DNA of 46,553 nt from Escherichia phage vB_EcoS_IME542, in the sequence record MK372342. One strand, given 5' to 3'. Shown piece by piece: positions 4,774 to 32,888 of the stretch. How positions within the stretch are numbered: the first letter of the stretch is position 1; every line of letters starts with the position of its first letter. Position numbers and translations under genes: made by a program. The notes below the pieces were generated by a model that was given only the letters and a program-made list of their open reading frames with translations, was not told the origin of the DNA and did not search any database.

Positions 4774-5189
4774 AAATCACAGATAAAGAAGATTACATTG
4801 AGTTTTACCCTGGTGCTGTAAAGTCATGCCCAAAGGAGGACGACGAACAGATCTTTTGCTCTGATTGGGTTAAGTATCATTACCCTCAGATTGTTTACTG
4901 GCACACAGTTAATGAAGGGATGAAATCAATTGGGTCAGCAAGGAAGGATGCAGCTAAAGGGCTCCTTAAGGGCGTATCAGACTGCTTATTCCTGATACCT
5001 GAATCACTTCGCGGAAAGTACCCTTTCGGAGCCATAGAGCTAAAGAGGGCTGGCAAAACCCAGGCTAGCACAGTCAGCGACGAACAAAAGTCTTTCCTTA
5101 AAAGCGTAAGAGAATCAGGTGGTTTCTCCGCTGTAGCCTATGGGCGCGAAGGTTTTCTTGCAGCATTCAAAGAAATGATTTCAAAATAG
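4770..5189 (+). CDS. VRR-NUC / PD-(D/E)XK-like nuclease
   Basis: D-x(n)-E-L-K arrangement (DCLFL...GAIELKRAGK); 139 aa; stop TAG lies inside the TAGCA box. Confidence 0.5.
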   Translation: MKITDKEDYIEFYPGAVKSCPKEDDEQIFCSDWVKYHYPQIVYWHTVNEGMKSIGSARKDAAKGLLKGVSDCLFLIPESLRGKYPFGAIELKRAGKTQASTVSDEQKSFLKSVRESGGFSAVAYGREGFLAAFKEMISK

Positions 5190-12347: not shown

Positions 12348-12591
12348 ATTTCAATCCTCAAATAAATGGTAAACACTCGACGCATCCAAGTCCATCGCAG
12401 CACAGGAATTCATCATCTGACTGGAATTGCTTAGCTAAATTAATATCCAACTTTCCGCGCACCACAAGGTCGGTGTAATCCTCGTTAAGCCCAATCAGTG
12501 CGCATTCGTGGCGTAACTTATCTTTATAAATATTTATATCTGTACCCTCATTTGGTTTGTACCGGATGTCGTCCGGCGGCGATATAATTTA

Positions 12592-12831
12592 TTAGTGCTG
12601 CTTTGCTGTGTAAAACTTCCAGTCATCCTGGACTTCAATCAATGTACCTTTGGCGATCATTGAGTTGAGGCTATCTTCAGTAAGGAGAGTTCTCAACCAG
12701 GTGTATTTGTTGCCTACTCGAACATTGCCACAGTTATTAAACACGCTACCGTTTACCAACATCATCTCAACGCCTTTTGAGCCAGGCTTAGTGAAGAGAC
12801 GTTTTTCTGTTTTAGTGGTCTGAATGCTCAT
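12592..12831 (-). CDS. hypothetical protein (ATG 12831; track ORF extended to 13020 through the promoter element)
   Basis: MSIQTTKTEKRLF... starts 10 nt after GGAGA RBS downstream of boxed promoter. Confidence 0.5.
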   Translation of the reverse strand: MSIQTTKTEKRLFTKPGSKGVEMMLVNGSVFNNCGNVRVGNKYTWLRTLLTEDSLNSMIAKGTLIEVQDDWKFYTAKQH

Positions 12832-12843
12832 TTTTTTATCTCC

Positions 12844-12914
12844 GGTGTGTTCGTTTCGTTTCGATGAAGTAACTATACGCCATCCTTGGCATTGAGGTTT
12901 AGCAATTCGTGCTA
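12844..12914 (-). promoter_or_regulatory. boxed promoter element (perfect box, hairpin GCCA-agga-TGGC, TATAGT, CATCGAAACGAAACGAA)
   Basis: Read directly on minus strand. Confidence 0.55.
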
Positions 12915-13204
12915 TTGCGTTCGATGTATGCATTAATTTCTTCAGAAGTTTCCATTGCGGAGCGGAAAGCGCCTTTTGCGTGGCGAGCATCACGGAATGA
13001 CTGGAAGAATTTACGAGCAACGTTTGCGAACATCGCGCCAGTTATACGAGCATCACCGAAATTAGTTTCGATTGAGTTACTGATGCCATCACGGAACTCA
13101 TTCTCAGTCATGAACATTTCAGCAATTTCAGCGGTGGCGAAAAGGTCTGCCAGTGATTGCATATTTTCGTGGTCAGCTTTAGTGAAAAGGTTCATGTTAA
13201 TCAT
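12899..13204 (-). CDS. hypothetical protein; C-terminus NSTNC-stop encoded by the palindromic box
   Basis: 101 aa; GGAGA RBS; first gene of minus-strand early block. Confidence 0.5.
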   Translation of the reverse strand: MINMNLFTKADHENMQSLADLFATAEIAEMFMTENEFRDGISNSIETNFGDARITGAMFANVARKFFQSFRDARHAKGAFRSAMETSEEINAYIERNSTNC

Positions 13205-13221
13205 TTTCGTGTCTCCGTGAG

Positions 13222-13285
13222 TTCTTCGTTTCGATGGAGTAATAATAGCAAATCACTCCTGATTGGTCATTAGCAAAAAGTGCTA
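13222..13285 (-). promoter_or_regulatory. boxed promoter element (perfect box TAGCActttttGCTA, hairpin AATCA/TGATT, extended -10 TGcTATTAT, CATCGAAACGAAG)
   Basis: Read directly on minus strand. Confidence 0.55.
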
Positions 13286-13305
13286 TTCGTTGGATTTATT
13301 GATTC

Positions 13306-13400
13306 TTGCAGATATTGCAATGATTCACCTCATTATTGCACATATAGCAATATTGTATCTGATGCAATGATGTTTTTGATTGTTGCGAATTTAGCAATTA
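13306..13400. repeat. cluster of short WWGCAAT motifs (ATTGCAAT, ATAGCAAT, GATGCAAT, TTAGCAAT, TTGCAC, TTGCGAAT) in divergent control region
   Basis: At least six copies within ~100 bp read directly; ATTGCAAT is itself palindromic. Confidence 0.45.
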
Positions 13401-13549
13401 TTTGTGTGGGAGTGAATGAATAGAGGAAGGACTACCATACAAGTTGATTTTGATTCTGGCTGAGCCATTTTGGATGTACACGTTACCGAAGTTATGTTGT
13501 GTAGATGCACCCACCCTCCGTAGGAATGCTGTACGCCTATAACGCGCAA

Positions 13550-13635
13550 TTACGCAATGGTTACATAATAATATCTATATATATCAACCTTTTACTTTAT
13601 TATTATTATTATTATTATATATATGTATATCTTGT
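13550..13635 (+). repeat. copy A of ~85 bp direct repeat with (TTA)7 microsatellite in divergent non-coding region
   Basis: TTACGCAATGGTTACATAATAATATCTATATATATCAACCTTTTACT(TTA)n... nearly identical to 40753..40835. Confidence 0.7.
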
Positions 13636-13800
13636 ATATCTGTCATATGGGGAGGGTCGATAGTTTTTTATGAAAATGACTATATTTATCTATATTAATA
13701 TATATAGGTATACCCCCGACATTTCCGCGGAAATTCATACACACGACATTTACACCGCTTCTGGCGCGGCTCTCAGAGTGGTTTGGCGTATCTGGCTGAA

Positions 13801-13846
13801 AATAACATGAGATAACACTTGATAACATGTAGATGTGTGATACTAT
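13801..13846 (+). promoter_or_regulatory. candidate early promoter: three phased 10-bp repeats (AATAACATGA GATAACACTT GATAACATGT), -35 TTGATA, 16 nt spacer, extended -10 TGaTACTAT
   Basis: Read directly; about 40 nt upstream of RBS AGGAG and start 13889. Confidence 0.5.
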
Positions 13847-13888
13847 GGATGCATCTTAACGAAGAGCAACCAATCAGGAGTAATAAGA

Positions 13889-14407
13889 ATGTCAGAACGT
13901 AAAGAAGCAGTAAGTCTTGGTGAAGTAGCTCGCTACATGGCGACTCAGGCTTTAAATAGCGACACGAAATCATTTGCAGTACCAGTGCGTATGATTGTTC
14001 GCCAGGTGTACGGGCTTAGCAAGGAGGAAATTAGCAAGGTTTATGATGAAGACCTTAAGCCGGATGGTAAGTACAATCTCAATAAGCTGAAGTCCTCATA
14101 CGTTTCAAACACAGTAAGTCGCATGCCTGAAATTAAGGCTGCAAACGTCAGGTCCATGTTCTCGATAAAGGATATGGAGTTTAATGGTGAGGAGGTTCGT
14201 TCTGCGGTAATCTCGCTTGTTCCTGGTGCAATCAATCATGGCTCACGAAGCAAAGCAGGGGAAGAGAGGGAGGCGGCTATCATTGAGAAGTTCAAGAAGC
14301 GACTTCTTGCAGTTACTCCGAGCGTAATCCACCTGAAAGGCGAGGAGCTTAATGGCGCAATGTTCGCACTAACCGCTTACCAGGAACTTATCAAGGAGAC
14401 CAAATAA
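13889..14407 (+). CDS. hypothetical early protein (first gene of plus-strand early operon)
   Basis: 172 aa; AGGAG RBS 8 nt upstream. Confidence 0.55.
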   Translation: MSERKEAVSLGEVARYMATQALNSDTKSFAVPVRMIVRQVYGLSKEEISKVYDEDLKPDGKYNLNKLKSSYVSNTVSRMPEIKAANVRSMFSIKDMEFNGEEVRSAVISLVPGAINHGSRSKAGEEREAAIIEKFKKRLLAVTPSVIHLKGEELNGAMFALTAYQELIKETK

Positions 14408-14941
14408 TGGGAATGTTTGATTTCAATGATGTGAAGCTAAGTGGCGAGGAAATCGTAAGAATTGCGCAGCGTGATGGTTACTCAATTCTTCGCGTGGCAA
14501 TCAGTAATAACTGATATCGGCAAACTCAGCGCTTCTGGGGTCGCCCTGATGCATCGTCAATCTACAAAGGTAGCGAGCATGCGGTTCTTGTTAATCTAAT
14601 TAGGAAAATGGGAAGAAACGGGAAAAGGGGTGCTTGGTGTTAGGTCATTATACGAAGGCCTCAGGAAATCAAAACCAGTTGATTCACGTAATGTCAGACT
14701 AATGGCGAGGCTTCAGGAGGGACTTATCCCAGACCTAGAGAAGATGAATCTCGTCTGCATGATTGGTGATAAGATTTATGTTCACCCTGCAATCCTTGAT
14801 GAGTGTTGGGAACCTAACTTCAAAGTATACGAAGGTGAGCATCCTAGTAGACTACCATACCACTTGCGTTACAGTGAGGAGGAGGTTGAGATGGCTATGA
14901 AGTTCTATCGGAAAGCTAAATTACTCCTGACTGGGAAATAG
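14407..14941 (+). pseudogene. disrupted, internally deleted paralogue of the P-loop ATPase gene (9344..10927): N-terminal and C-terminal homology only, in-frame TGA and a frameshift
   Basis: MGMFDFNDVKLSGEEIVRIAQRDGYSILRVAISNN-stop-YRQTQRFWGRP matches ATPase N-terminus MFDFNEDKLSVEQVMAIAATDNLPPLRVAINANGYRQSQSFWKAP; GVRSLYEGLRKSKP...LVCMIGDKIYVHP matches ATPase C-terminus GVRSLYEAARKVKP...YTCLIGDKIYINP. Confidence 0.5.
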
Positions 14942-15000
14942 CACTTTTTGCCTAACGTAATAATGCCAAGGATGGCATAATCATCTCATCGAAACGAGAG
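14939..15000 (+). promoter_or_regulatory. boxed promoter element (box TAGCActtttTGCCT, hairpin GCCA-agga-TGGC, extended -10 TGgCATAAT, CATCGAAACGAGAG)
   Basis: Read directly. Confidence 0.55.
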
Positions 15001-15018
15001 ATGCAAAGGAAAAATAAA

Positions 15019-15237
15019 ATGAACAAGACAATCACACTGCAATGCATTAAGACAAATAACCCAGAATTTATTAAAGTTCACAAATATTTAGCAACCCTGG
15101 TAGACGGTAAAACATGGGCAGTTAAAGGTGGCTTCCAGGATTACAAATTCCCACTTGAGCACATACCTGGCGGAAACCTTGGTTTTGTTAGTAGCTGCCG
15201 CTCAGTTAAGTTCGTTTTTGAAGTGGTAATGAAATAG
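15019..15237 (+). CDS. hypothetical protein (second ATG with AAAGGA RBS preferred)
   Basis: 72 aa; stop TAG inside next box. Confidence 0.45.
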   Translation: MNKTITLQCIKTNNPEFIKVHKYLATLVDGKTWAVKGGFQDYKFPLEHIPGGNLGFVSSCRSVKFVFEVVMK

Positions 15238-15262
15238 CACTTTTCATCCTGACTGGTATAAT
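15235..15262 (+). promoter_or_regulatory. boxed promoter element, short form (TAGCA half-box, extended -10 TGgTATAAT)
   Basis: Read directly. Confidence 0.45.
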
Positions 15263-15334
15263 CCCCGCATAAACCACACGAAAGGAATTTGATTGACCAT
15301 ATACGAACACAAATTCAGCAGCAGGGGTATTGAT

Positions 15335-15418
15335 ATGCTCCTGCACTATTTAGACGAAAAATACGCAAAGCTCATGCTTAAGACGCATGGCGGCACAATA
15401 ACGAGGGTTGAGATATGA
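15335..15418 (+). CDS. hypothetical small protein (27 aa)
   Basis: MLLHYLDEKYAKLMLKTHGGTITRVEI; AGGGG RBS; ATGA overlap with next gene. Confidence 0.3.
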   Translation: MLLHYLDEKYAKLMLKTHGGTITRVEI

Positions 15419-15675
15419 GTAACTACGATCGAGAAATTATTGGGATTGATGGAACTGTGACAAAAGTAGATGTTTATCGTGTTCTTGATGCGTTCGGTGT
15501 ATCGGACCCGGCCACGCAGCATGCGATAAAGAAGATGCTTTGCACTGGCTTGCGTGGCCACAAGGATTACCTGACTGACCTTAATGACTCAATTGAATCA
15601 TTGCAGAAGGCTAAAGAGCTTTACGGTCAGAGAGTGATTAACGAGTCGGCCAAACCAAAACTTAATGTTAAATAG
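15415..15675 (+). CDS. hypothetical protein
   Basis: 86 aa ORF. Confidence 0.5.
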   Translation: MSNYDREIIGIDGTVTKVDVYRVLDAFGVSDPATQHAIKKMLCTGLRGHKDYLTDLNDSIESLQKAKELYGQRVINESAKPKLNVK

Positions 15676-15734
15676 CACTTTTTGTTAAAACTCCAGGGAA
15701 GGAGTTTGGCATAATAGCTTCATCGAAACGAGAG
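15673..15734 (+). promoter_or_regulatory. boxed promoter element (box, hairpin AAACTCC-agggaa-GGAGTTT, extended -10 TGgCATAAT, CATCGAAACGAGAG)
   Basis: Read directly. Confidence 0.55.
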
Positions 15735-15745
15735 AGGGATTCAAG

Positions 15746-15826
15746 ATGTACTACGACGTTATCGCTGTTTGCCTGGTTGGTATTGTGGCTATTGTTGCCA
15801 TTGTTAAGATTACGGAGAAGAATTAA
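15746..15826 (+). CDS. hypothetical small membrane peptide (26 aa)
   Basis: MYYDVIAVCLVGIVAIVAIVKITEKN, single TM helix. Confidence 0.35.
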   Translation: MYYDVIAVCLVGIVAIVAIVKITEKN

Positions 15827-15957
15827 TGCACAATCAATTGATGATGGGTGATGTTTTATATCAAACAATGCCATGGCTAATCTGGTCACTTGGATTTATG
15901 ATTGTGTATATGATTGCATCCTTCGCGGATGACGATAAAGAGGAGATTAAAGAATGA
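15826..15957 (+). CDS. hypothetical small membrane protein (43 aa)
   Basis: MHNQLMMGDVLYQTMPWLIWSLGFMIVYMIASFADDDKEEIKE, TM helix plus acidic tail; start overlaps previous stop. Confidence 0.35.
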   Translation: MHNQLMMGDVLYQTMPWLIWSLGFMIVYMIASFADDDKEEIKE

Positions 15958-16181
15958 TTACGATTAACCTGTCAGAGACAGATGCAGCAATTCTTAAGTC
16001 GATAATTAACTCACCAAAAGATACAAGGAGTTTTGCTGTAATGCGTGTGGCTAAAGAGGTTTGCACTCAGATTAACAATCAGCAATTCGATGTAAGCGAC
16101 TTCGAGTCATCTCGCCAGTACGAGTCACTAAGCGTCAACGCTGCATACTTGGCTAACTGGGATAAGGAAACAAAGAAATGA
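15954..16181 (+). CDS. hypothetical protein
   Basis: 75 aa ORF, ATGA overlap. Confidence 0.45.
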   Translation: MITINLSETDAAILKSIINSPKDTRSFAVMRVAKEVCTQINNQQFDVSDFESSRQYESLSVNAAYLANWDKETKK

Positions 16182-16315
16182 TTTACGTTCATACGTACTA
16201 CACGGGAAAATTTAACAGCGTTAAGCACGTTAGAGTGCACGATAGCTACGAGAGCGCAAAGGCGCAATGGCTGGTTCTTGGCGGTGACATTAATTCATAT
16301 AAAATCGCTGAATAG
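16178..16315 (+). CDS. hypothetical small protein (45 aa)
   Basis: MIYVHTYYTGKFNSVKHVRVHDSYESAKAQWLVLGGDINSYKIAE; stop TAG inside box. Confidence 0.35.
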   Translation: MIYVHTYYTGKFNSVKHVRVHDSYESAKAQWLVLGGDINSYKIAE

Positions 16316-16374
16316 CACTAATTGATAAAACAGGGTTGGGGTAATTTGGTATAGTTACCCTATCAAACGAGATG
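16313..16374 (+). promoter_or_regulatory. boxed promoter element (box TAGCActaatTGATA, hairpin GGGTAA/TTACCC, extended -10 TGgTATAGT)
   Basis: Read directly. Confidence 0.5.
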
Positions 16375-16385
16375 AGGTGACACAT

Positions 16386-16565
16386 ATGAGATTCCAACAG
16401 AGCGAACCTAAGCTTCAGGCCAACCACTTCGATGGCTACGCAACATTCATCATTGCACAGGCTTGCGGAATGCGTGAAGACCCACAGGTTCACACAATTC
16501 ATTTAACTGAAGAGCAGGCTCGAGAGTTGGCTTACGAAATTCTTGAGCAATTGAATCGAATTTAA
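16386..16565 (+). CDS. hypothetical protein (ATG 16386 with GAGGTGA RBS)
   Basis: 59 aa. Confidence 0.45.
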   Translation: MRFQQSEPKLQANHFDGYATFIIAQACGMREDPQVHTIHLTEEQARELAYEILEQLNRI

Positions 16566-16614
16566 CGCATCTAAAACGCATTCTAACGAACGATAATTTA
16601 AGGCATACGATTAG

Positions 16615-16770
16615 ATGGATAACTACGAATTACCAAGCCAGTGGGCAAAGAGAAAGATGGATGAGGCTAGGAATGGAGATATTGCTATGATGTACTTTGA
16701 GCCAATGAATCTATGGAAGGAGCGCGAGGATAAGATGGGACTTACAGCAGAGAAAAAAGAGCAAGAATAG
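16615..16770 (+). CDS. hypothetical small protein (51 aa)
   Basis: MDNYELPSQWAKRKMDEARNGDIAMMYFEPMNLWKEREDKMGLTAEKKEQE; weak RBS. Confidence 0.3.
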   Translation: MDNYELPSQWAKRKMDEARNGDIAMMYFEPMNLWKEREDKMGLTAEKKEQE

Positions 16771-16831
16771 CTAAACGCATTCGCCATGGACGGCATATAA
16801 TTACCTTATCAACACAATGAGAGATTGAGAG

Positions 16832-17020
16832 ATGAGTTATTCAAAGATTTATGTAGTCTATGGGTATAATATAGGTGACGAAGATTCTATAAGCGTCATC
16901 GCATTCCCGACGAGGTGTGACGCTGAATCATTCGTAAATTCAATGAACTGTAATGATAAGATGGCGTTTGATGAATACGATTTCGAAGAGATTGATTTTG
17001 CTGATACAACGAGAGGTTAA
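16832..17020 (+). CDS. hypothetical protein
   Basis: 62 aa ORF with GAGAG RBS. Confidence 0.45.
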   Translation: MSYSKIYVVYGYNIGDEDSISVIAFPTRCDAESFVNSMNCNDKMAFDEYDFEEIDFADTTRG

Positions 17021-17023
17021 ATA

Positions 17024-17260
17024 ATGTTCGGATTAGAAGACGCATACTTTAACGCAGTTAAGCGCCAGGCTGACAAGCTGAACGATGAGTACGGCAAACT
17101 GGGAGCAAAGAAGAAGGATGATAAAGTTGTTGCTGCACTTATAACCCAGATCTGGGGGCCCGTATCAACACTAATCGCGAGGGATAAGTTTGTATGGATT
17201 GCGGGTTATAGAAAAGGTCGTGTTGGTCATGATGAGAATGGGAATAGCCTTTATGAGTAA
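17024..17260 (+). CDS. hypothetical protein
   Basis: 78 aa ORF, 3 nt after previous stop. Confidence 0.45.
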   Translation: MFGLEDAYFNAVKRQADKLNDEYGKLGAKKKDDKVVAALITQIWGPVSTLIARDKFVWIAGYRKGRVGHDENGNSLYE

Positions 17261-17665
17261 GTTAGATAAAGCATTTTTTAGATTTGCTTTTTGTCTAGTG
17301 GTTGCATACAGCATCGGCGCTGTTGTGTTCGTGGTTATGTTATGAGCGAGTTAACAATCTGGTTTATCGAAGGGCTGGTTGCTTGAGATTATTTTTAATC
17401 GTTTAAATGAGGATTGTTAAAAAGATCTTGCATCTCTGAGCGGAAGCATCTAATATTAACCACGTAGACAAACGAGGCCACCAAGTGGCAACGGCGCACG
17501 GAGCGCAACTACTAAGTCCGTCGCTCATTAGGTAGCGTATGCGGCACATTAAACCCTCAAGGGGCTTGTAAGACCTAGCGCAAATAGGCAGTTAAATCGG
17601 TCGTAGCAGGCGACGCTGGAGCCGTAACCAGTAATCTTCATCTAGCAAGTCTAGCTAAAGATTAT

Positions 17666-17740
17666 GCTCTGTTAGCTTAATGGAGAAAGCCGCAGCCTTC
17701 TAAGCTGTTGATGGTGGTTCAACTCCACCACGGAGCGCCA
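17666..17740 (+). tRNA. tRNA-Arg (anticodon UCU), CCA encoded
   Basis: Hand-folded cloverleaf: acceptor GCTCTGT/ACGGAGC, D-arm GCTT-AATGGAGA-AAGC, anticodon stem GCAGC/GCTGT with loop CTTCTAA, T-arm GGTGG-TTCAACT-CCACC, discriminator G, CCA. Confidence 0.7.
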
Positions 17741-17759
17741 AATTCAAGGAGCACTATCA

Positions 17760-17942
17760 ATGTGGGATGTGAAGTTATCTATTCGTTTAATGGGTCGCAG
17801 TTGCAAGAATTGCACTCAAGAATACATCGCGTCAGTTGCCGCAATCAGCGCTGAGGATGCGGTAGCGAAAGTAAAGGAGATGTCGGGCGCTGACCCTGAC
17901 ACTCATAAATTCCTAGTATCTTACGTTCGTGAGCGAAAATAA
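17760..17942 (+). CDS. hypothetical protein
   Basis: 60 aa; AAGGAG RBS; followed by terminator. Confidence 0.45.
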   Translation: MWDVKLSIRLMGRSCKNCTQEYIASVAAISAEDAVAKVKEMSGADPDTHKFLVSYVRERK

Positions 17943-17986
17943 AAAGTGTTATACCCTCGTTTAAGTTTCATCTCTCTCGTTGTTTT

Positions 17987-18011
17987 AGCCCTCGCTTGAG
18001 GGCTTTTTTTC
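17987..18011 (+). terminator. rho-independent terminator
   Basis: AGCCCTC-gctt-GAGGGCT followed by TTTTTTT. Confidence 0.75.
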
Positions 18012-18021
18012 GTCTGCAATA

Positions 18022-18030
18022 TGCTATAAT
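18022..18030 (+). promoter_or_regulatory. extended -10 promoter element TGcTATAAT for the packaging/structural operon
   Basis: Perfect TGnTATAAT immediately after the terminator; no upstream TAGCA box. Confidence 0.45.
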
Positions 18031-18053
18031 CTATCCTGAACAGAGGAGGATTT

Positions 18054-18155
18054 ATGAGTAATATTATTGCTACAATTATCTTTGGTGCCACTTTGCCTTT
18101 CATTTGTTCTAGGTGTGGTATGGTTACTAACTTTACTAGGATTCTAATAACATGA
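18054..18155 (+). CDS. hypothetical small membrane peptide (33 aa)
   Basis: MSNIIATIIFGATLPFICSRCGMVTNFTRILIT; strong GAGGAGG RBS; ATGA overlap with next gene. Confidence 0.4.
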   Translation: MSNIIATIIFGATLPFICSRCGMVTNFTRILIT

Positions 18156-18658
18156 GCAAAGTAGCGTTAAAGATGGGCGAGGGGAATTTCAAGGCGCTCT
18201 ACAACAAGAAGTATGGCGATATTGCTATGGTGGCAATCAATCGCAAGTACACGCCAGAAGAGGTGTTTGATTTCGCGGTGAGATACTTCTCATGGGCTGA
18301 GAGTGAGGCAATCAAAGCTATTGAGACGGCGGCTTTCCGGGGAGTTGTTAGTGAAAACCTTGTACATAAGCCGAGAGTATTCACATTAACCGGCCTGGCG
18401 CTATTCATGGGTGTCAATATCAATAGATTCGCCAGCTGGCGTACTGAGGCTGGTTACTCTGACGTGATGGAATTTATTGATAACGTAATCTACGAGCAAA
18501 AATATCAGCTTGGCGTTGCGGGTATCATCAACCCCACAATCGTTGGTAAAGAGCTAGGGATTGATAAGCCGCAGGAGATTACCATTAGCAACAACTCCAC
18601 AGCTAACGACGTTGATAGCATGAAGGAAGCGCTGGAGTCTGTGATTAGCAAGCTGTAA
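18152..18658 (+). CDS. terminase small subunit (putative)
   Basis: 168 aa gene immediately upstream of terminase large subunit; call is positional. Confidence 0.5.
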   Translation: MSKVALKMGEGNFKALYNKKYGDIAMVAINRKYTPEEVFDFAVRYFSWAESEAIKAIETAAFRGVVSENLVHKPRVFTLTGLALFMGVNINRFASWRTEAGYSDVMEFIDNVIYEQKYQLGVAGIINPTIVGKELGIDKPQEITISNNSTANDVDSMKEALESVISKL

Positions 18659-29906: not shown

Positions 29907-32888
29907 ATGGCAACAAATGAATTAGCCGGAATCACACTAGCCGTAGACGTCTCGCAGGTAGACAGAGGTACACAGTCCCTGCGGAAGTTCAGGCAGGCAA
30001 ACCAGCAGGCCGCTTCCGGCATTAGTGAGTTCGTCAACGCCGAGCAGGTTGCAAAGAATCAAGCCAGAGACACAGCTCGCGCACTGGCTGAACGGCAATC
30101 ATCTTTGGCTAAATTGCAAACGGCTATTGACCCAACTGCGGCAAAGTTCCGTAAACTCCAGGAGGCTGCTGTAGGTCTTGATAAGGCTTTCGCGGCTGGA
30201 GTAGTTCCTGATGAGGAGTTTTTCCGCTTAGGTGAGGCGCTTGAAACGCAGAACGCAAAACTTGCTCGTTCACGTGCGGCACTAACTGAAGAGGGTAGAG
30301 CGGCGGCGCAAGCTGCAAAGGATAAGGCAAAGGCAAAGGCTGAAGCGGATAGATTCATTGCATCACTTGAGCGTCAGGCTCAGGCGGCAACATTGACGCG
30401 AGAGGAGTACCTAAAGTTACAAGCGGCCCAGCTTGGCGTAAGTTCTCAGGCGGCGCCTATTATTGACAGAATCGCCGATGCATCACGGAAGGCAAACACC
30501 CAGCTAATTGCTCAGAGCAAGGCCTTTCAACGCTCTGGCTTAAGCGCAGGTCAATACAAGGCTGCAATCTCTCAATTGCCAGCGCAGATTACAGATATTG
30601 GGACATCACTTGCTGGCGGCATTCCGATTTGGCTTATTGCAATTCAGCAAGGTGGACAAATTAAGGATGCATTTGGAGGTATTGGTAACACATTTAGTTT
30701 TGCGCTTGCTGCTTTAAACCCGTTCAACGTAGCAGTTGGGGTTCTCGGTGGCGCGCTTGTTGCTTTAGGCGTCGGTGCTGCGCAGGCTGAAAGTGAATTC
30801 AGGGCGTTAAACTCCGCCATTGCGTTCTCAAACAACTCCACAATCGCATCAATCTCGCAGGTTAGAGAGTTGGTTAGCTCTGTTTCTGATGCCACTGGTG
30901 CAACCAGAGGACTTGTGACTAGCATCGCAACAAGCCTTGTTGAGCAAGGAAACCTTACGCTAACGCAGATTGACAAGATTACTAAATCAACAGCCAGATG
31001 GGCTCAGTTGACAGGTAAGGATGCAAAGGAAATTACTGGTTACTATAACCAGATTGCGAGCGACCCAATTCAAGGACTTGCTGATTTAGACAAGAGGTTT
31101 AACTTCCTTACACAGGGGCAGTTAACAACAATTGAAAGATTGAGAGAGACTAGGGGTGAGGTTGAAGCCGTAACTGCTGCTATTGATATATTTAGCAAAT
31201 CACAAGAGGCAAACCTTAACGATATTGCAGCCCAGCTTACTCCTCTTGAATTGGCCTGGAATGACTTCAGGAAGTACATATCTGATGTATGGGATGCAAT
31301 TAGTCGCAGAACGGTTGGGGCGCTAAACCTGTTTGTTGACGTAATCGCCGGAACAATTGAGCAAATTAGGGTCTTCATCAACCAGGGTGATGTGCTGATT
31401 GGTGAATTCGTAATTAGCGCAACACAGGCACTGCAGAACATCCCCGGCCTTGATGGTGTTGGTGATGATGTTGTCAAGGGACAGCAGAAGATTATCGATG
31501 CCGCTAAGAAGCAAAACATTGAGCTAGAGAAGTCTATCAAGGAGCGCGATGCCAGAATCAGAGAAGGAGAACTTGGCTACGTTACTCGCAGAGAAAATCA
31601 GAATACCAATGAGCAGTCAGGCACGGATGAGGAGTTTGCAAAAAGGAAGAAAGCGCTTCAGGATGAACTTGATGCGATCAAGAAGAGCAGGAAAGAAGAA
31701 AATGGTAGGGTTAAAGAGCAAAGAGACCTTACAATTGGTTACGAATCTGGCGTACTTGCACTACAGGCACAACTCAAGGTGCTTCAGGAAAACAGGGATA
31801 TTGGCGCAGTAATAAGCAATGAGCGCAAGCAGTATCTTCAGGAGGTTGCAAAATTCCAGATTCTTGAGCAAAGGCAGCGTGATGGCTCAATAAAAAAAGA
31901 GCAAGCAAGACTTATTCTCGAGAAAGATAAAGTTCTGGAACTAGCAAGGCAGAAAGCTGAACTTGGCGATCAGATTGTTTTGCAGGAAAGAGCTAATAAG
32001 TTAGCTGAGGATAACAGGAAGAAGATTCTTCAGATCAACAACGAAGCAAATAACATTGGTTTTGGCGCCGGATTATCATCTCGTGAGCAGCAGAGAGCCA
32101 GAGAGATTCAGTCGCTTCAGTCCAATCAGTTAAACAAAGGTGGCTCTGTAGATGACACTGATTTTCAGGCTTTACTCGAAGCAAGGCGTAATTTCTATGC
32201 TCAAGAGGATGCGCTACGTGAAAACTGGCTTGCTGGCGTGAATCAATCCTTTGCTAACTGGGCTGAAAGCGCTACAGATGCTTTCTCAATTGCCGGAAGT
32301 TTAACCACTAAGGTATTTGAAGGCATTACTGACCAGATTACTGACCTTGTAACCACTGGAGAAACAAACTTCAGGGAGTTTACTGTAAACATACTCAAGC
32401 AGATTGCAAGAATTGCAACTCAGCTTCTTATTGTTAAGGCTATCGAGTCTAGCTTAAGTAGCTTTGGTGGTACTGGTGGCGCGATTGGGTCTATCGCATC
32501 TGCGATTGGCGGTGGCTTTGCTAGCGGCGGTTACACTGGAGACGGTGGAAAATATCAACCAGCAGGCACTGTACATAAGGGGGAGTTTGTATTCACAAAA
32601 GAAGCAACAAGCAGGATTGGTGTTAAAAACCTTTACGCATTGATGAGAGGTTACGCAAATGGCGGTGTTGTAGGCGGGCCTTCGGGCTATGCAAATGGCG
32701 GCTTGGTTTCTGGTGGTGCAGATGTTAATGTTAGCGGAATAACCGTTAACGTTAATAGTGGGATTGGAAGCGACCCGGAACAGGCCAAGGCGCTGCAAAA
32801 TGGCGTTAAGGCAATTGTAGCAGAAGAGATTGCTCAGTCTTTCCAGCAGGGCGGCAGAGCATTTGCTTATTTGAGAGGTTTCAACTAA
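29907..32888 (+). CDS. tail tape measure protein
   Basis: 993 aa, long alpha-helical Ala/Gln/Glu-rich N-terminal half, Gly-rich C-terminus; position after G/GT. Confidence 0.85.
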   Translation: MATNELAGITLAVDVSQVDRGTQSLRKFRQANQQAASGISEFVNAEQVAKNQARDTARALAERQSSLAKLQTAIDPTAAKFRKLQEAAVGLDKAFAAGVVPDEEFFRLGEALETQNAKLARSRAALTEEGRAAAQAAKDKAKAKAEADRFIASLERQAQAATLTREEYLKLQAAQLGVSSQAAPIIDRIADASRKANTQLIAQSKAFQRSGLSAGQYKAAISQLPAQITDIGTSLAGGIPIWLIAIQQGGQIKDAFGGIGNTFSFALAALNPFNVAVGVLGGALVALGVGAAQAESEFRALNSAIAFSNNSTIASISQVRELVSSVSDATGATRGLVTSIATSLVEQGNLTLTQIDKITKSTARWAQLTGKDAKEITGYYNQIASDPIQGLADLDKRFNFLTQGQLTTIERLRETRGEVEAVTAAIDIFSKSQEANLNDIAAQLTPLELAWNDFRKYISDVWDAISRRTVGALNLFVDVIAGTIEQIRVFINQGDVLIGEFVISATQALQNIPGLDGVGDDVVKGQQKIIDAAKKQNIELEKSIKERDARIREGELGYVTRRENQNTNEQSGTDEEFAKRKKALQDELDAIKKSRKEENGRVKEQRDLTIGYESGVLALQAQLKVLQENRDIGAVISNERKQYLQEVAKFQILEQRQRDGSIKKEQARLILEKDKVLELARQKAELGDQIVLQERANKLAEDNRKKILQINNEANNIGFGAGLSSREQQRAREIQSLQSNQLNKGGSVDDTDFQALLEARRNFYAQEDALRENWLAGVNQSFANWAESATDAFSIAGSLTTKVFEGITDQITDLVTTGETNFREFTVNILKQIARIATQLLIVKAIESSLSSFGGTGGAIGSIASAIGGGFASGGYTGDGGKYQPAGTVHKGEFVFTKEATSRIGVKNLYALMRGYANGGVVGGPSGYANGGLVSGGADVNVSGITVNVNSGIGSDPEQAKALQNGVKAIVAEEIAQSFQQGGRAFAYLRGFN

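Follow-up and report, generated by a model that had tools for sequence, protein, structure and literature searches.

A rightward array of small genes with repeated box, hairpin and predicted promoter cassettes in the T1-like phage vB_EcoS_IME542

We analyzed the whole genome of Escherichia phage vB_EcoS_IME542 (the window, 46,553 bp), which has been placed in Christensenvirus with E. coli Rosetta(DE3) as its reported host (NC_048208; PMC10450929). Here we describe an array of small genes that extends co-directionally on the + strand from 13889 to 17386 and is followed by a tRNA-Arg gene, a gene of 60 amino acids (aa) and a terminator at 17987-18011 (Table 1). The closest database phages are T1-like siphophages of the Drexlerviridae/Braunvirinae, namely Rtp, IME253, SU57, RobRod40, JulesPiccard and the Veterinaerplatzvirus group. 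The left flank of the array is a divergent intergenic region of 684 bp, from which a leftward, mirror-image array of small genes also departs, leading to a gene for a DUF3987 helicase. On the right, the tRNA-Arg(TCT) gene, the 60-aa gene and the intrinsic terminator separate the array from the small terminase gene, which begins at 18152.

Table 1. Coordinates of the rightward small-gene array of vB_EcoS_IME542, its cassettes and its flanking features
Feature	Position	Strand	Description
Divergent control region	13205..13888	.	Between the leftward and rightward small-gene arrays; sequence reading, repeat family D1
P1, canonical box-less sigma-70 promoter	13819..13846	+	TTGATA, 16 nt, TG-n-TACTAT; then CATC..AACGAAG leader
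g01	13889..14407	+	172 aa; Pfam DUF7174 (PF23796), 171.5 bits against a cut-off of 27
g02, pseudogene	14407..14941	+	phrog_7327; TGA at 14512-14514 and 1-nt insertion in GGGAAAAGGGG near 14620-14629
Cassette C1	14937..14999	+	Box 14937-14955; g02 TAG 14939-14941; hairpin ATGCCA/TGGCAT
C1 predicted promoter parts	14976-14981; 14988-14999	+	-10 CATAAT after TG; leader ATCGAAACGAGA
g03	15019..15237	+	72 aa; phrog_27558; accessory; among relatives only in SU57 and T145P1
Cassette C2, truncated hybrid	15233..15262	+	Left half-box AATAGCACTTTT (g03 TAG) joined to CATCCTGACTGG and -10 TATAAT
g04	15293..15418	+	41 aa; TTG start; phrog_12148; core; 83-95% identity in relatives
g05	15415..15675	+	86 aa; core
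Cassette C3	15671..15733	+	Box 15671-15689 with g05 TAG; hairpin AACTCC/GGAGTT
C3 predicted promoter parts	15710-15715; 15722-15733	+	-10 CATAAT after TG; leader
g06	15746..15826	+	26-aa single-span hydrophobic peptide; accessory
g07	15826..15957	+	43 aa; one hydrophobic span and acidic C-terminal tail; mobile accessory family
g08	15954..16181	+	75 aa; Pfam DUF7180 (PF23805), 84.2 bits against a cut-off of 27; core
g09	16178..16315	+	45 aa; phrog_3955; core; Rtp record labels the homologue rtp9 similar to T1 gp04
Cassette C4	16311..16373	+	Box 16311-16329 with g09 TAG; GGGTAA/TTACCC brackets -10 TATAGT (16350-16355); leader ATCAAACGAGAT
g10	16386..16565	+	59 aa; phrog_7411; core; 84-97% identity in relatives
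g11	16615..16770	+	51 aa; phrog_1312; core, fast-evolving; homologues in relatives carry Pfam DUF8272
Cassette C5	16757..16831	+	Degenerate box AAGAGCAAGAATAGCTAAA with g11 TAG 16768-16770; -10 TATAAT 16796-16801
g12	16832..17020	+	62 aa; acidic (isoelectric point (pI) 4.1); rare accessory; unrelated genes occupy the slot in relatives
g13	17024..17260	+	78 aa; phrog_303; core; Rtp record labels the homologue rtp15 similar to T1 gp59
g14	17253..17345	+	30-aa hydrophobic peptide; 90-bp insertion unique to vB_EcoS_IME542, between g13 and g15
g15	17342..17386	+	Remnant (14 codons) of a hydrophobic core micropeptide that has 20-21 aa and reads MSELTIWFIAGLITWAYFLIV in relatives
tRNA-Arg (anticodon TCT)	17666..17740	+	Conserved among relatives
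g16	17760..17942	+	60 aa; phrog_2919; core; 92-98% identity in relatives
Intrinsic terminator	17987..18011	+	AGCCCTC-GCTT-GAGGGCT and T7; end of the rightward array; small terminase gene follows at 18152

The original prediction for this locus had placed an early operon of about 17 small genes, each with its own boxed promoter, at 13889-17260. Its open reading frames (ORFs), among them 13889-14407, 15746-15826 and 15826-15957, do lie on the + strand behind Shine-Dalgarno-like sequences. The frequent ATGA overlaps it described are seen at 15415, 15954, 16178 and 17342, and TAATG stop/start overlaps occur at 14407 and 15826. The gene count and the right-hand limit required revision. We counted 14 ORFs in this interval, two of which (14407-14514 and 14630-14941) are not separate genes but fragments of a single broken one, and the array runs on past 17260: it also includes a membrane peptide of 30 aa (17253-17345) and a truncated conserved micropeptide (17342-17386), for about 15 genes overall. 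Comparison with 9-11 relatives shows a strong excess of substitutions at the third codon position (positions 1/2/3: g05, 71/43/277; g10, 42/24/235; g16, 28/10/121; the 14-codon g15, 11/12/30), which shows that most of the conserved small ORFs are under coding constraint.

Across 10 genomes, the interval from g01 to the small terminase gene contains 48 ORF families, a count that rests on simple ORF calling and may include some spurious singletons. Eleven families are found in at least 8 genomes and 24 in one genome, so that the accessory-gene variability put forward as a comparative-genomics check is borne out. We take the 11 widespread families as the core (g01, g02, which is broken here, g04, g05, g08, g09, g10, g11, g13, g15 and g16); the remaining 37 or so are accessory and are represented in vB_EcoS_IME542 by g03, g06, g07, g12 and g14. 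The homologous families include the equivalents of rtp1, rtp7, rtp9, rtp15 and rtp17. Compared with the small-ORF regions of TLS, T1, Rtp and Rogue1, that of vB_EcoS_IME542 differs in nothing basic, and its accessory genes g06, g07, g12 and g14 are different.

The four boxes named in the original prediction are real (AATAGCAC at 14937, 15233, 15671 and 16311), with the qualification that the copy at 15233 is a truncated deletion hybrid and that a degenerate fifth copy at 16757 had been missed. The array therefore has five cassettes for about 15 genes rather than one for each gene. Allowing up to 3 mismatches to the consensus, we find 20 copies of the full box ATAGCACNNNTTGCTAAA genome-wide, on both strands, where 2.3 are expected, and none of 100 shuffles reached 20. 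There are 1-2 mismatches in each of the boxes at 14937, 15671 and 16311 and 3 in the box at 16757; the copy at 15233 retains the left half only. Judged by its sequence, the box is no new element but the known T1-family repeat: a 21-nucleotide (nt) direct repeat, aaATAGCACnnnTTGnTAAAA, has been described in TLS, T1, Rtp and Rogue1, where it runs along transcription about 76 nt upstream of start codons, and its role as a stoperator, an enhancer-binding site or an UP-like element was left open (PMC11447400). The likeness extends to the orientation, the intergenic site, the distance (about 76 nt there, 74-81 nt here), the T/G/A subtypes of the central triplet and the genome position, with many hypothetical small ORFs from the control region up to the small terminase gene (PMC11447400).

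All 17 cassettes in the window (17/17) are co-oriented with the downstream gene. In the array, the distance from box to ATG is 81 nt for C1, 74 nt for each of C3, C4 and C5, and 59 nt for the truncated C2. The central triplet of the box is TTT at 14937, 15233 and 15671, TAA at 16311, GAA at 5185, 11772, 12916 and 40677, and AAA at 32887 and 42770, with no evident link between triplet subtype and gene class. Elsewhere in the genome, cassettes lie at 457, 1997(-), 2458, 5185, 7513, 11002(-), 11772(-), 12916(-), 13287(-), 20247, 28871, 32887, 40677(-) and 42770, where they precede blocks of replication, lysis, structural and recombination genes on both strands; no -10 is found at the expected distance from the copy at 457.

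Each cassette combines, in order, the family-wide box AATAGCACnnnTTGCTAAA, a variable hairpin, a -10 element without a -35 element, a leader ATCGAAACGA(A/G)A and a ribosome-binding site. The box sits 22 nt upstream of a sigma-70-type -10. This distance, measured from TTGCTA, is kept in 14 of the 17 window cassettes and in 68 of 79 boxes from 12 related loci (23 nt in a further 9/79). Selection on nothing but the left half-box and the -10 gave 106 distinct instances, in which the right half-box is 74-95% conserved per position, 72% have G at -14, roughly half have T at -15, and the -10 reads TATA(A/G)T. From the same alignment a downstream C-n-CATC(G/A)AAAC leader emerges as conserved, and no -35 hexamer does. 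The leader starts 7 nt past the -10, so that its first A is likely the transcription start. At the upstream end, the TAG stop codon of the preceding gene lies inside the box (ATAGCAC) for g02, g03, g05 and g09, and likewise for g11 in the degenerate cassette at 16757.

The hairpin between box and leader either overlaps the -10 with its 3′ arm or brackets the -10 with both arms. Mean folding energy is -8.7 kcal/mol, against -3.8 kcal/mol for shuffles, and z is at most -2.4 in 11 of the 17 cassettes. In homologous cassettes the arms differ in sequence and the pairing is kept (AACTCC/GGAGTT, AAACCGC/GCGGTTT, AACCC/GGGTT).

Three known types of element were compared with the box and rejected. TTGCTA does not serve as an ordinary -35 because the spacer is 22 nt rather than 16-18 nt. 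A sigma-54 promoter (TGGCAC-N5-TTGC) does not fit, the box (TAGCAC-N3-TTGC) having AG in place of GG and being 2 nt short. On direct reading, both the spacing and the sequence are wrong for a T4 MotA box.

Upstream of g01 lies P1, whose position is conserved in 10 relatives with the same kind of leader following; in RobRod40 it reads TTGACT, 17 nt, TATAAT. Host RNA polymerase would start at P1 and read about 15 tightly packed genes, the tRNA-Arg gene and the 60-aa gene up to 17987-18011. Inside the array no intrinsic terminator is predicted, and a strong one is at 17987. Most likely, the five internal cassettes would re-initiate transcription along the way. Early expression of the array is suggested by three things: P1 is canonical, the control region is adjacent, and in T1 and TLS the label "presumptive early" has been applied.

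The cassettes also coincide with the points at which the gene content of related phages diverges. Homology blocks shared with 8 of 9 relatives begin at 15243-15245, just past the second box, and in 6 of 9 relatives homology blocks end at 15684-15691, inside the third. C5 (16756-16835) is conserved by itself in 9/9 relatives, the genes to its left and right not being conserved with it, and the gene that follows is unrelated in each. C2 carries a perfect extended -10; its left half comes from the cassette after g03 in SU57/T145P1 and its remainder from the cassette before g04, with the loss of 15 nt, among them TTGnTAAA and the left arm of the hairpin. In SU57/T145P1 those two cassettes are separated by 0.8-1 kb of genes, which vB_EcoS_IME542 lacks. 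This pattern points to the cassettes as short homologous recombination joints at which genes may be gained, lost and swapped.

A comparable arrangement is known from T4-like phages, where promoter-early stem-loop (PeSL) cassettes lie in hyperplastic regions (PMC2839356, PMC4122927). Both systems place short, repeated, composite cassettes of promoter (a predicted one here) and stem-loop between small non-essential genes, and in both the insertions, deletions and replacements that distinguish related phages begin or end at the cassettes. They differ in that T4 PeSLs have full sigma-70 promoters and proven terminators, whereas here the box takes the place of the -35, and the hairpin, with no clear U-tract after it, either overlaps the -10 or encloses it. 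PeSL is thus an analogue in how it works and not a member of the same family, the box motif being specific to T1-like phages (PMC11447400).

Three hydrophobic peptides and a 62-aa acidic protein occupy the accessory slots of vB_EcoS_IME542. Rtp carries rtp6, a 30-aa homologue of T4 Stp (so named in the Rtp record), between the third cassette and the DUF7180 gene, and rtp4, two genes upstream of rtp6, is a polynucleotide kinase (Pnk). The arrays of metagenomic contig L010 and of JulesPiccard encode a kinase (with a HAD_PNKP Pfam hit in L010) and a protein of P-loop NTPase type. Stp inhibits the EcoprrI restriction enzyme and triggers PrrC (PMC2610378). The Stp, kinase and P-loop NTPase genes found in relatives suggest that the slots are used for such functions, and a role of the array in early host takeover or counter-defence is plausible by analogy.

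In Rtp, rtp6 occupies the exact slot of g06 and g07, and the array of vB_EcoS_IME542 has no kinase gene. Neither g06 nor g07 qualifies as Stp: both are hydrophobic and lack the Stp core motif, which is present in rtp6 (the comparison used what we take to be the T4 Stp sequence). As to the proposal that the first gene and the membrane peptides are candidates for takeover or anti-defence functions, the Stp homologue in Rtp fits such a role for the slot of the peptides, and g01 is a core gene with no functional match. Small, mostly non-essential genes read by host RNA polymerase form highly variable clusters in T7 (class I genes 0.3-1.3), T5 (pre-early) and T4 (immediate-early), and these clusters include host-shutoff and anti-restriction proteins. 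Since T1-like genomes are circularly permuted, they have no fixed first-entering end, and we know of no array gene that is homologous to characterized T7, T5 or T4 early proteins.

The evidence leads us to read the region as the rightward arm of a T1-like hyperplastic small-gene region, in which P1 and five cassettes would serve a core scaffold with accessory slots and which likely has an early takeover or counter-defence role; we give this reading a probability of roughly 0.7. Several observations weigh against it. Because the cassettes lack a -35, a generic sigma-70 scan does not call them, and the window hairpins have no clear U-tract after them, unlike those of some relatives, where a T-rich tail is present. 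Since boxes are also found in front of replication and late genes, they mark no early class and would form a genome-wide promoter type. The literature yielded no Drexlerviridae transcriptome, and we infer the early timing, the promoter activity of the cassettes and the start sites from the sequence. Searches of PHROGs, Pfam, NCBIfam and PDB predicted no biochemical function for any array product. The association with Stp and Pnk applies to the slots rather than to the genes that sit in them in vB_EcoS_IME542, and g06, g07 and g14 have few homologues and no annotated family in the PHROG search.

The first gene, g01, bears on the best of the alternative explanations. Its product is basic (pI 9.2) and belongs to a core family restricted to Drexlerviridae; all 19 aligned homologues match DUF7174, and the sequence matches are uncharacterized Drexlerviridae proteins only, one of them from TLS. 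The family is small, with 189 phage records, nearly all from coliphages or other enterobacterial phages, and a profile search of 1.84 billion representatives returned 43 clusters only. These clusters showed no credible domain fusion, all being of 43-207 aa except a repeat-rich 561-aa protein (P0065) that we judged spurious. The predicted structure (mean predicted local distance difference test (pLDDT) score 79) combines an alpha/beta N-terminal part, which includes a long beta-hairpin, with a pair of long helices at the C terminus, and fold searches with this model gave no informative structural neighbor. A uS4/S4-domain assignment was rejected: the PDB profile hit (E = 0.005) came with a shallow alignment and fell to E > 1 with a more diverse one, hhalign gave probabilities of 1.4% and 0.2%, and no S4-domain protein appeared in the fold searches. 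First proposed as a takeover or anti-defence candidate, g01 is a core gene conserved family-wide rather than an accessory gene, and it obtains no function from a fold or family match.

According to this alternative, which we consider unlikely, the box is the site of a dimeric, class-II-type activator. Only the box-less P1 would fire immediately, and all boxed promoters would be turned on afterwards by the product of g01 (gp1, DUF7174), by another early protein or by a host factor, making the inner array delayed-early. The box does contain an inverted repeat, TAGCA-N5-TGCTA, whose center lies at about -42 from the predicted start (computed from the 22-nt spacing, with the start assumed 7 nt after the -10), a class II position. 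In class II activation, a dimer site near -41.5 replaces the -35, as with CRP, FNR and lambda cI. The absence of a -35 hexamer from the cassettes would suit such a mechanism, as would the position of P1, the one clearly canonical promoter here, conserved before g01 in relatives. Like the box, the basic g01 is restricted to Drexlerviridae and has homologues across several subfamilies, including in TLS, and "enhancer-binding sequences" are one of the options named by the TLS authors (PMC11447400). Other features speak against an activator. Since about 72% of instances have G at -14, roughly half have T at -15 and the -10 is near consensus, many cassettes could dispense with both a -35 and an activator. 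The palindrome is asymmetric (G4 97%, its partner C14 74%), the conserved C7 and AAA tail fall outside the symmetry, and the -42 figure depends on a predicted start. For g01 there is no match to a helix-turn-helix or other DNA-binding family or fold, and its alignment with homologues in SECphi27, Stevie and several further phages begins only near residue 56. Still less likely, in our view, is the specific form in which the boxed cassette is an activator-dependent promoter class used Drexlerviridae-wide, with gp1 as the activator and founder of a new family of phage transcription factors; if true, gp1 would drive the switch from immediate-early to delayed expression in T1-like phages.

It is improbable that the box instead binds a repressor or a host protein, acting like a stoperator or as a site for a nucleoid protein such as Lrp, and so damps or times transcription of the array. 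The stoperator analogy has been raised for TLS (PMC11447400), and the boxes are co-oriented with transcription and lie at gene ends. Two half-sites of the box fit the E. coli Lrp consensus YAGHAWATTWTDCTR (PMC5554404); the boxes match it at 9-13 of 15 positions (mean 11.2), and at least 11 matches are found at only about 0.6% of genome positions. No box exceeds 13/15, the best-conserved position, C7, violates the consensus and the central triplet misfits. The fixed 22-nt phasing to the -10 argues for a part of a promoter and not for a roadblock, and no repressor gene has been identified in the virulent vB_EcoS_IME542.

Parts of the array show decay. Within 3.5 kb there are three lesions, the TGA at 14512-14514, a homopolymer frameshift at about 14620-14629 and the TGA at 17384-17386; they may reflect relaxed selection during laboratory propagation (the reported host is Rosetta(DE3)), and the frameshift could be a sequencing error. 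The first two disrupt g02, whose fragments align to positions 1-33 (ORF 14407-14514) and 74-179 (ORF 14630-14941) of the same 179-position PHROG family. In a translated alignment with the intact 174-aa gene of RobRod40, the in-frame TGA replaces a Gly of the relatives and one nucleotide is added in GGGAAAAGGGG. Intact g02 (174-179 aa) is a paralogue of the DUF3987 helicase of the phage (9344-10927, - strand) that retains the two ends of that protein: identity to the helicase is 56% over the N-terminal 45 aa and 47-60% over the C-terminal 70 aa, and about 400 aa of ATPase core have no counterpart. By this sequence relationship, intact g02 could compete for partners of the helicase. The gene is intact in RobRod40, IME253, SU57, BEK1-1, JulesPiccard and contigs L013 and L015, aligns at full length in 2862III, and is reduced to remnants in G8, T145P1, Rtp and L010. 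A core gene of 47-55 aa that follows g11 in 9 of 10 genomes (MSF(I/T)EYxIACERLVF... in G8, RobRod40 and IME253) is absent here (comparison at 16735-16757). The last 11 codons of g11 differ from those of relatives, suggesting that g11 was joined to the fifth cassette by a deletion.

That much of the array is a gene graveyard, with its shortest ORFs arising by chance or surviving as remnants without a role, is improbable even so: against the three inactivating lesions in 3.5 kb (TGA and frameshift in g02, TGA in g15), the missing core gene after g11, the deletion scar at C2, the internal stop in the g07 homologues of L013 and L015 and the lack of a g14 homologue in the loci searched stand the 11 families that at least 8 of the 10 genomes retain and that show a strong bias to third-position changes, the 21-aa g15 family intact in 11/11 relatives, the g06 copy intact in a second contig with mostly synonymous changes, the 7 homologue clusters of g12 with the same slot in one inspected contig, and the maintained ribosome-binding sites and translational coupling.

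The membrane-type peptides account for much of the accessory content. As originally proposed, 15746-15826 (g06) and 15826-15957 (g07) read as single-span peptides, with hydrophobic 17-residue stretches reaching Kyte-Doolittle maxima of 3.0 and 2.0. An intact, 96%-identical copy of g06 in metagenomic contig L010 carries 3 synonymous and 2 amino-acid changes. The g07 family is intact in RobRod40, where it occupies another slot, N-truncated in L010 and interrupted by an internal stop in L013 and L015. For g14, no homologue was found in any locus searched; in JulesPiccard its slot is taken by an unrelated hydrophobic peptide of 35 aa. Of the membrane peptides in the region, the g15 micropeptide is the most conserved; it adjoins the interval of the original prediction without being part of it. 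It is intact in 11/11 relatives examined, mostly unannotated in their records, and is truncated in vB_EcoS_IME542 by a TGG to TGA change at codon 15 (17384-17386).

The judgment that no product of the array was recognizable by eye is upheld by PHROGs, Pfam, NCBIfam and PDB, which yield only families of unknown function. PHROGs gave only such families for the array genes and no match for the micropeptides, and NCBIfam gave no match for eight proteins of or beside the array, the DUF3987 helicase or one protein of the leftward array. Literature searches found no paper that mentions DUF7174 or DUF7180. An alternative start for g03 lies at 15001. Sequence searches of PDB with g05 and g13 gave no match. 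g05 shares homology with the last 60-75 aa of six PHROG families of 180-250 aa, of which one bears the label "ATPase"; it is not a remnant of larger genes in relatives, being unrelated to the P-loop NTPases of JulesPiccard and L010 and to the 247-aa protein of RobRod40. For g12 there are 7 homologue clusters, and in the one contig inspected the homologue occupies the same slot.

In the control region to the left of the array, three spaced, operator-like palindromes TTGCA-N5-TGCAA (family D1) lie at 13306-13398 (within 13286-13398), an extremely AT-rich (TAT)n stretch at 13560-13720 and a perfect 14-bp palindrome ATTTCCGCGGAAAT at 13721-13734. Conservation among relatives is 74-82% over 13266-13673, and the Rtp and SU57 records begin within the region. 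We regard 13205-13888 as a candidate replication origin or genome-end/control region.

To the right, a non-coding stretch of about 280 nt 5′ of the tRNA gene (17387-17665) is 72-89% conserved among relatives, matches no Rfam family and is no more stably folded than its shuffles (z = -1.3). A box-like CTAGCAAGTCTAGCTAAA occurs at 17642-17659, a few nt 5′ of the tRNA gene, which is the sole Rfam match over 12500-18300. A perfect extended -10, TGCTATAAT, lies 3′ of the terminator at 18022-18030. It is followed by a 33-aa hydrophobic ORF (18054-18155) without a PHROG match, whose stop overlaps the start of the small terminase gene (ATGA).

The array is real and ordinary for T1-like phages; the genome was already sequenced and annotated and the box already published. 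T1-like phages often contaminate laboratory and industrial fermentations and are candidates for phage therapy, and their small-gene regions are almost entirely unannotated. Our analysis goes beyond the TLS description in the 22-nt phasing of the box to the -10, the embedded stop codon, the hairpin whose pairing is kept, the leader and the role of the cassettes as indel breakpoints. What it adds is a precise cassette anatomy and the separation of a conserved scaffold from variable slots, one of which holds an anti-restriction peptide in Rtp. The genes g06, g07, g12 and g14, together with the 21-aa g15 family, form a shortlist of candidates for takeover or counter-defence activity.

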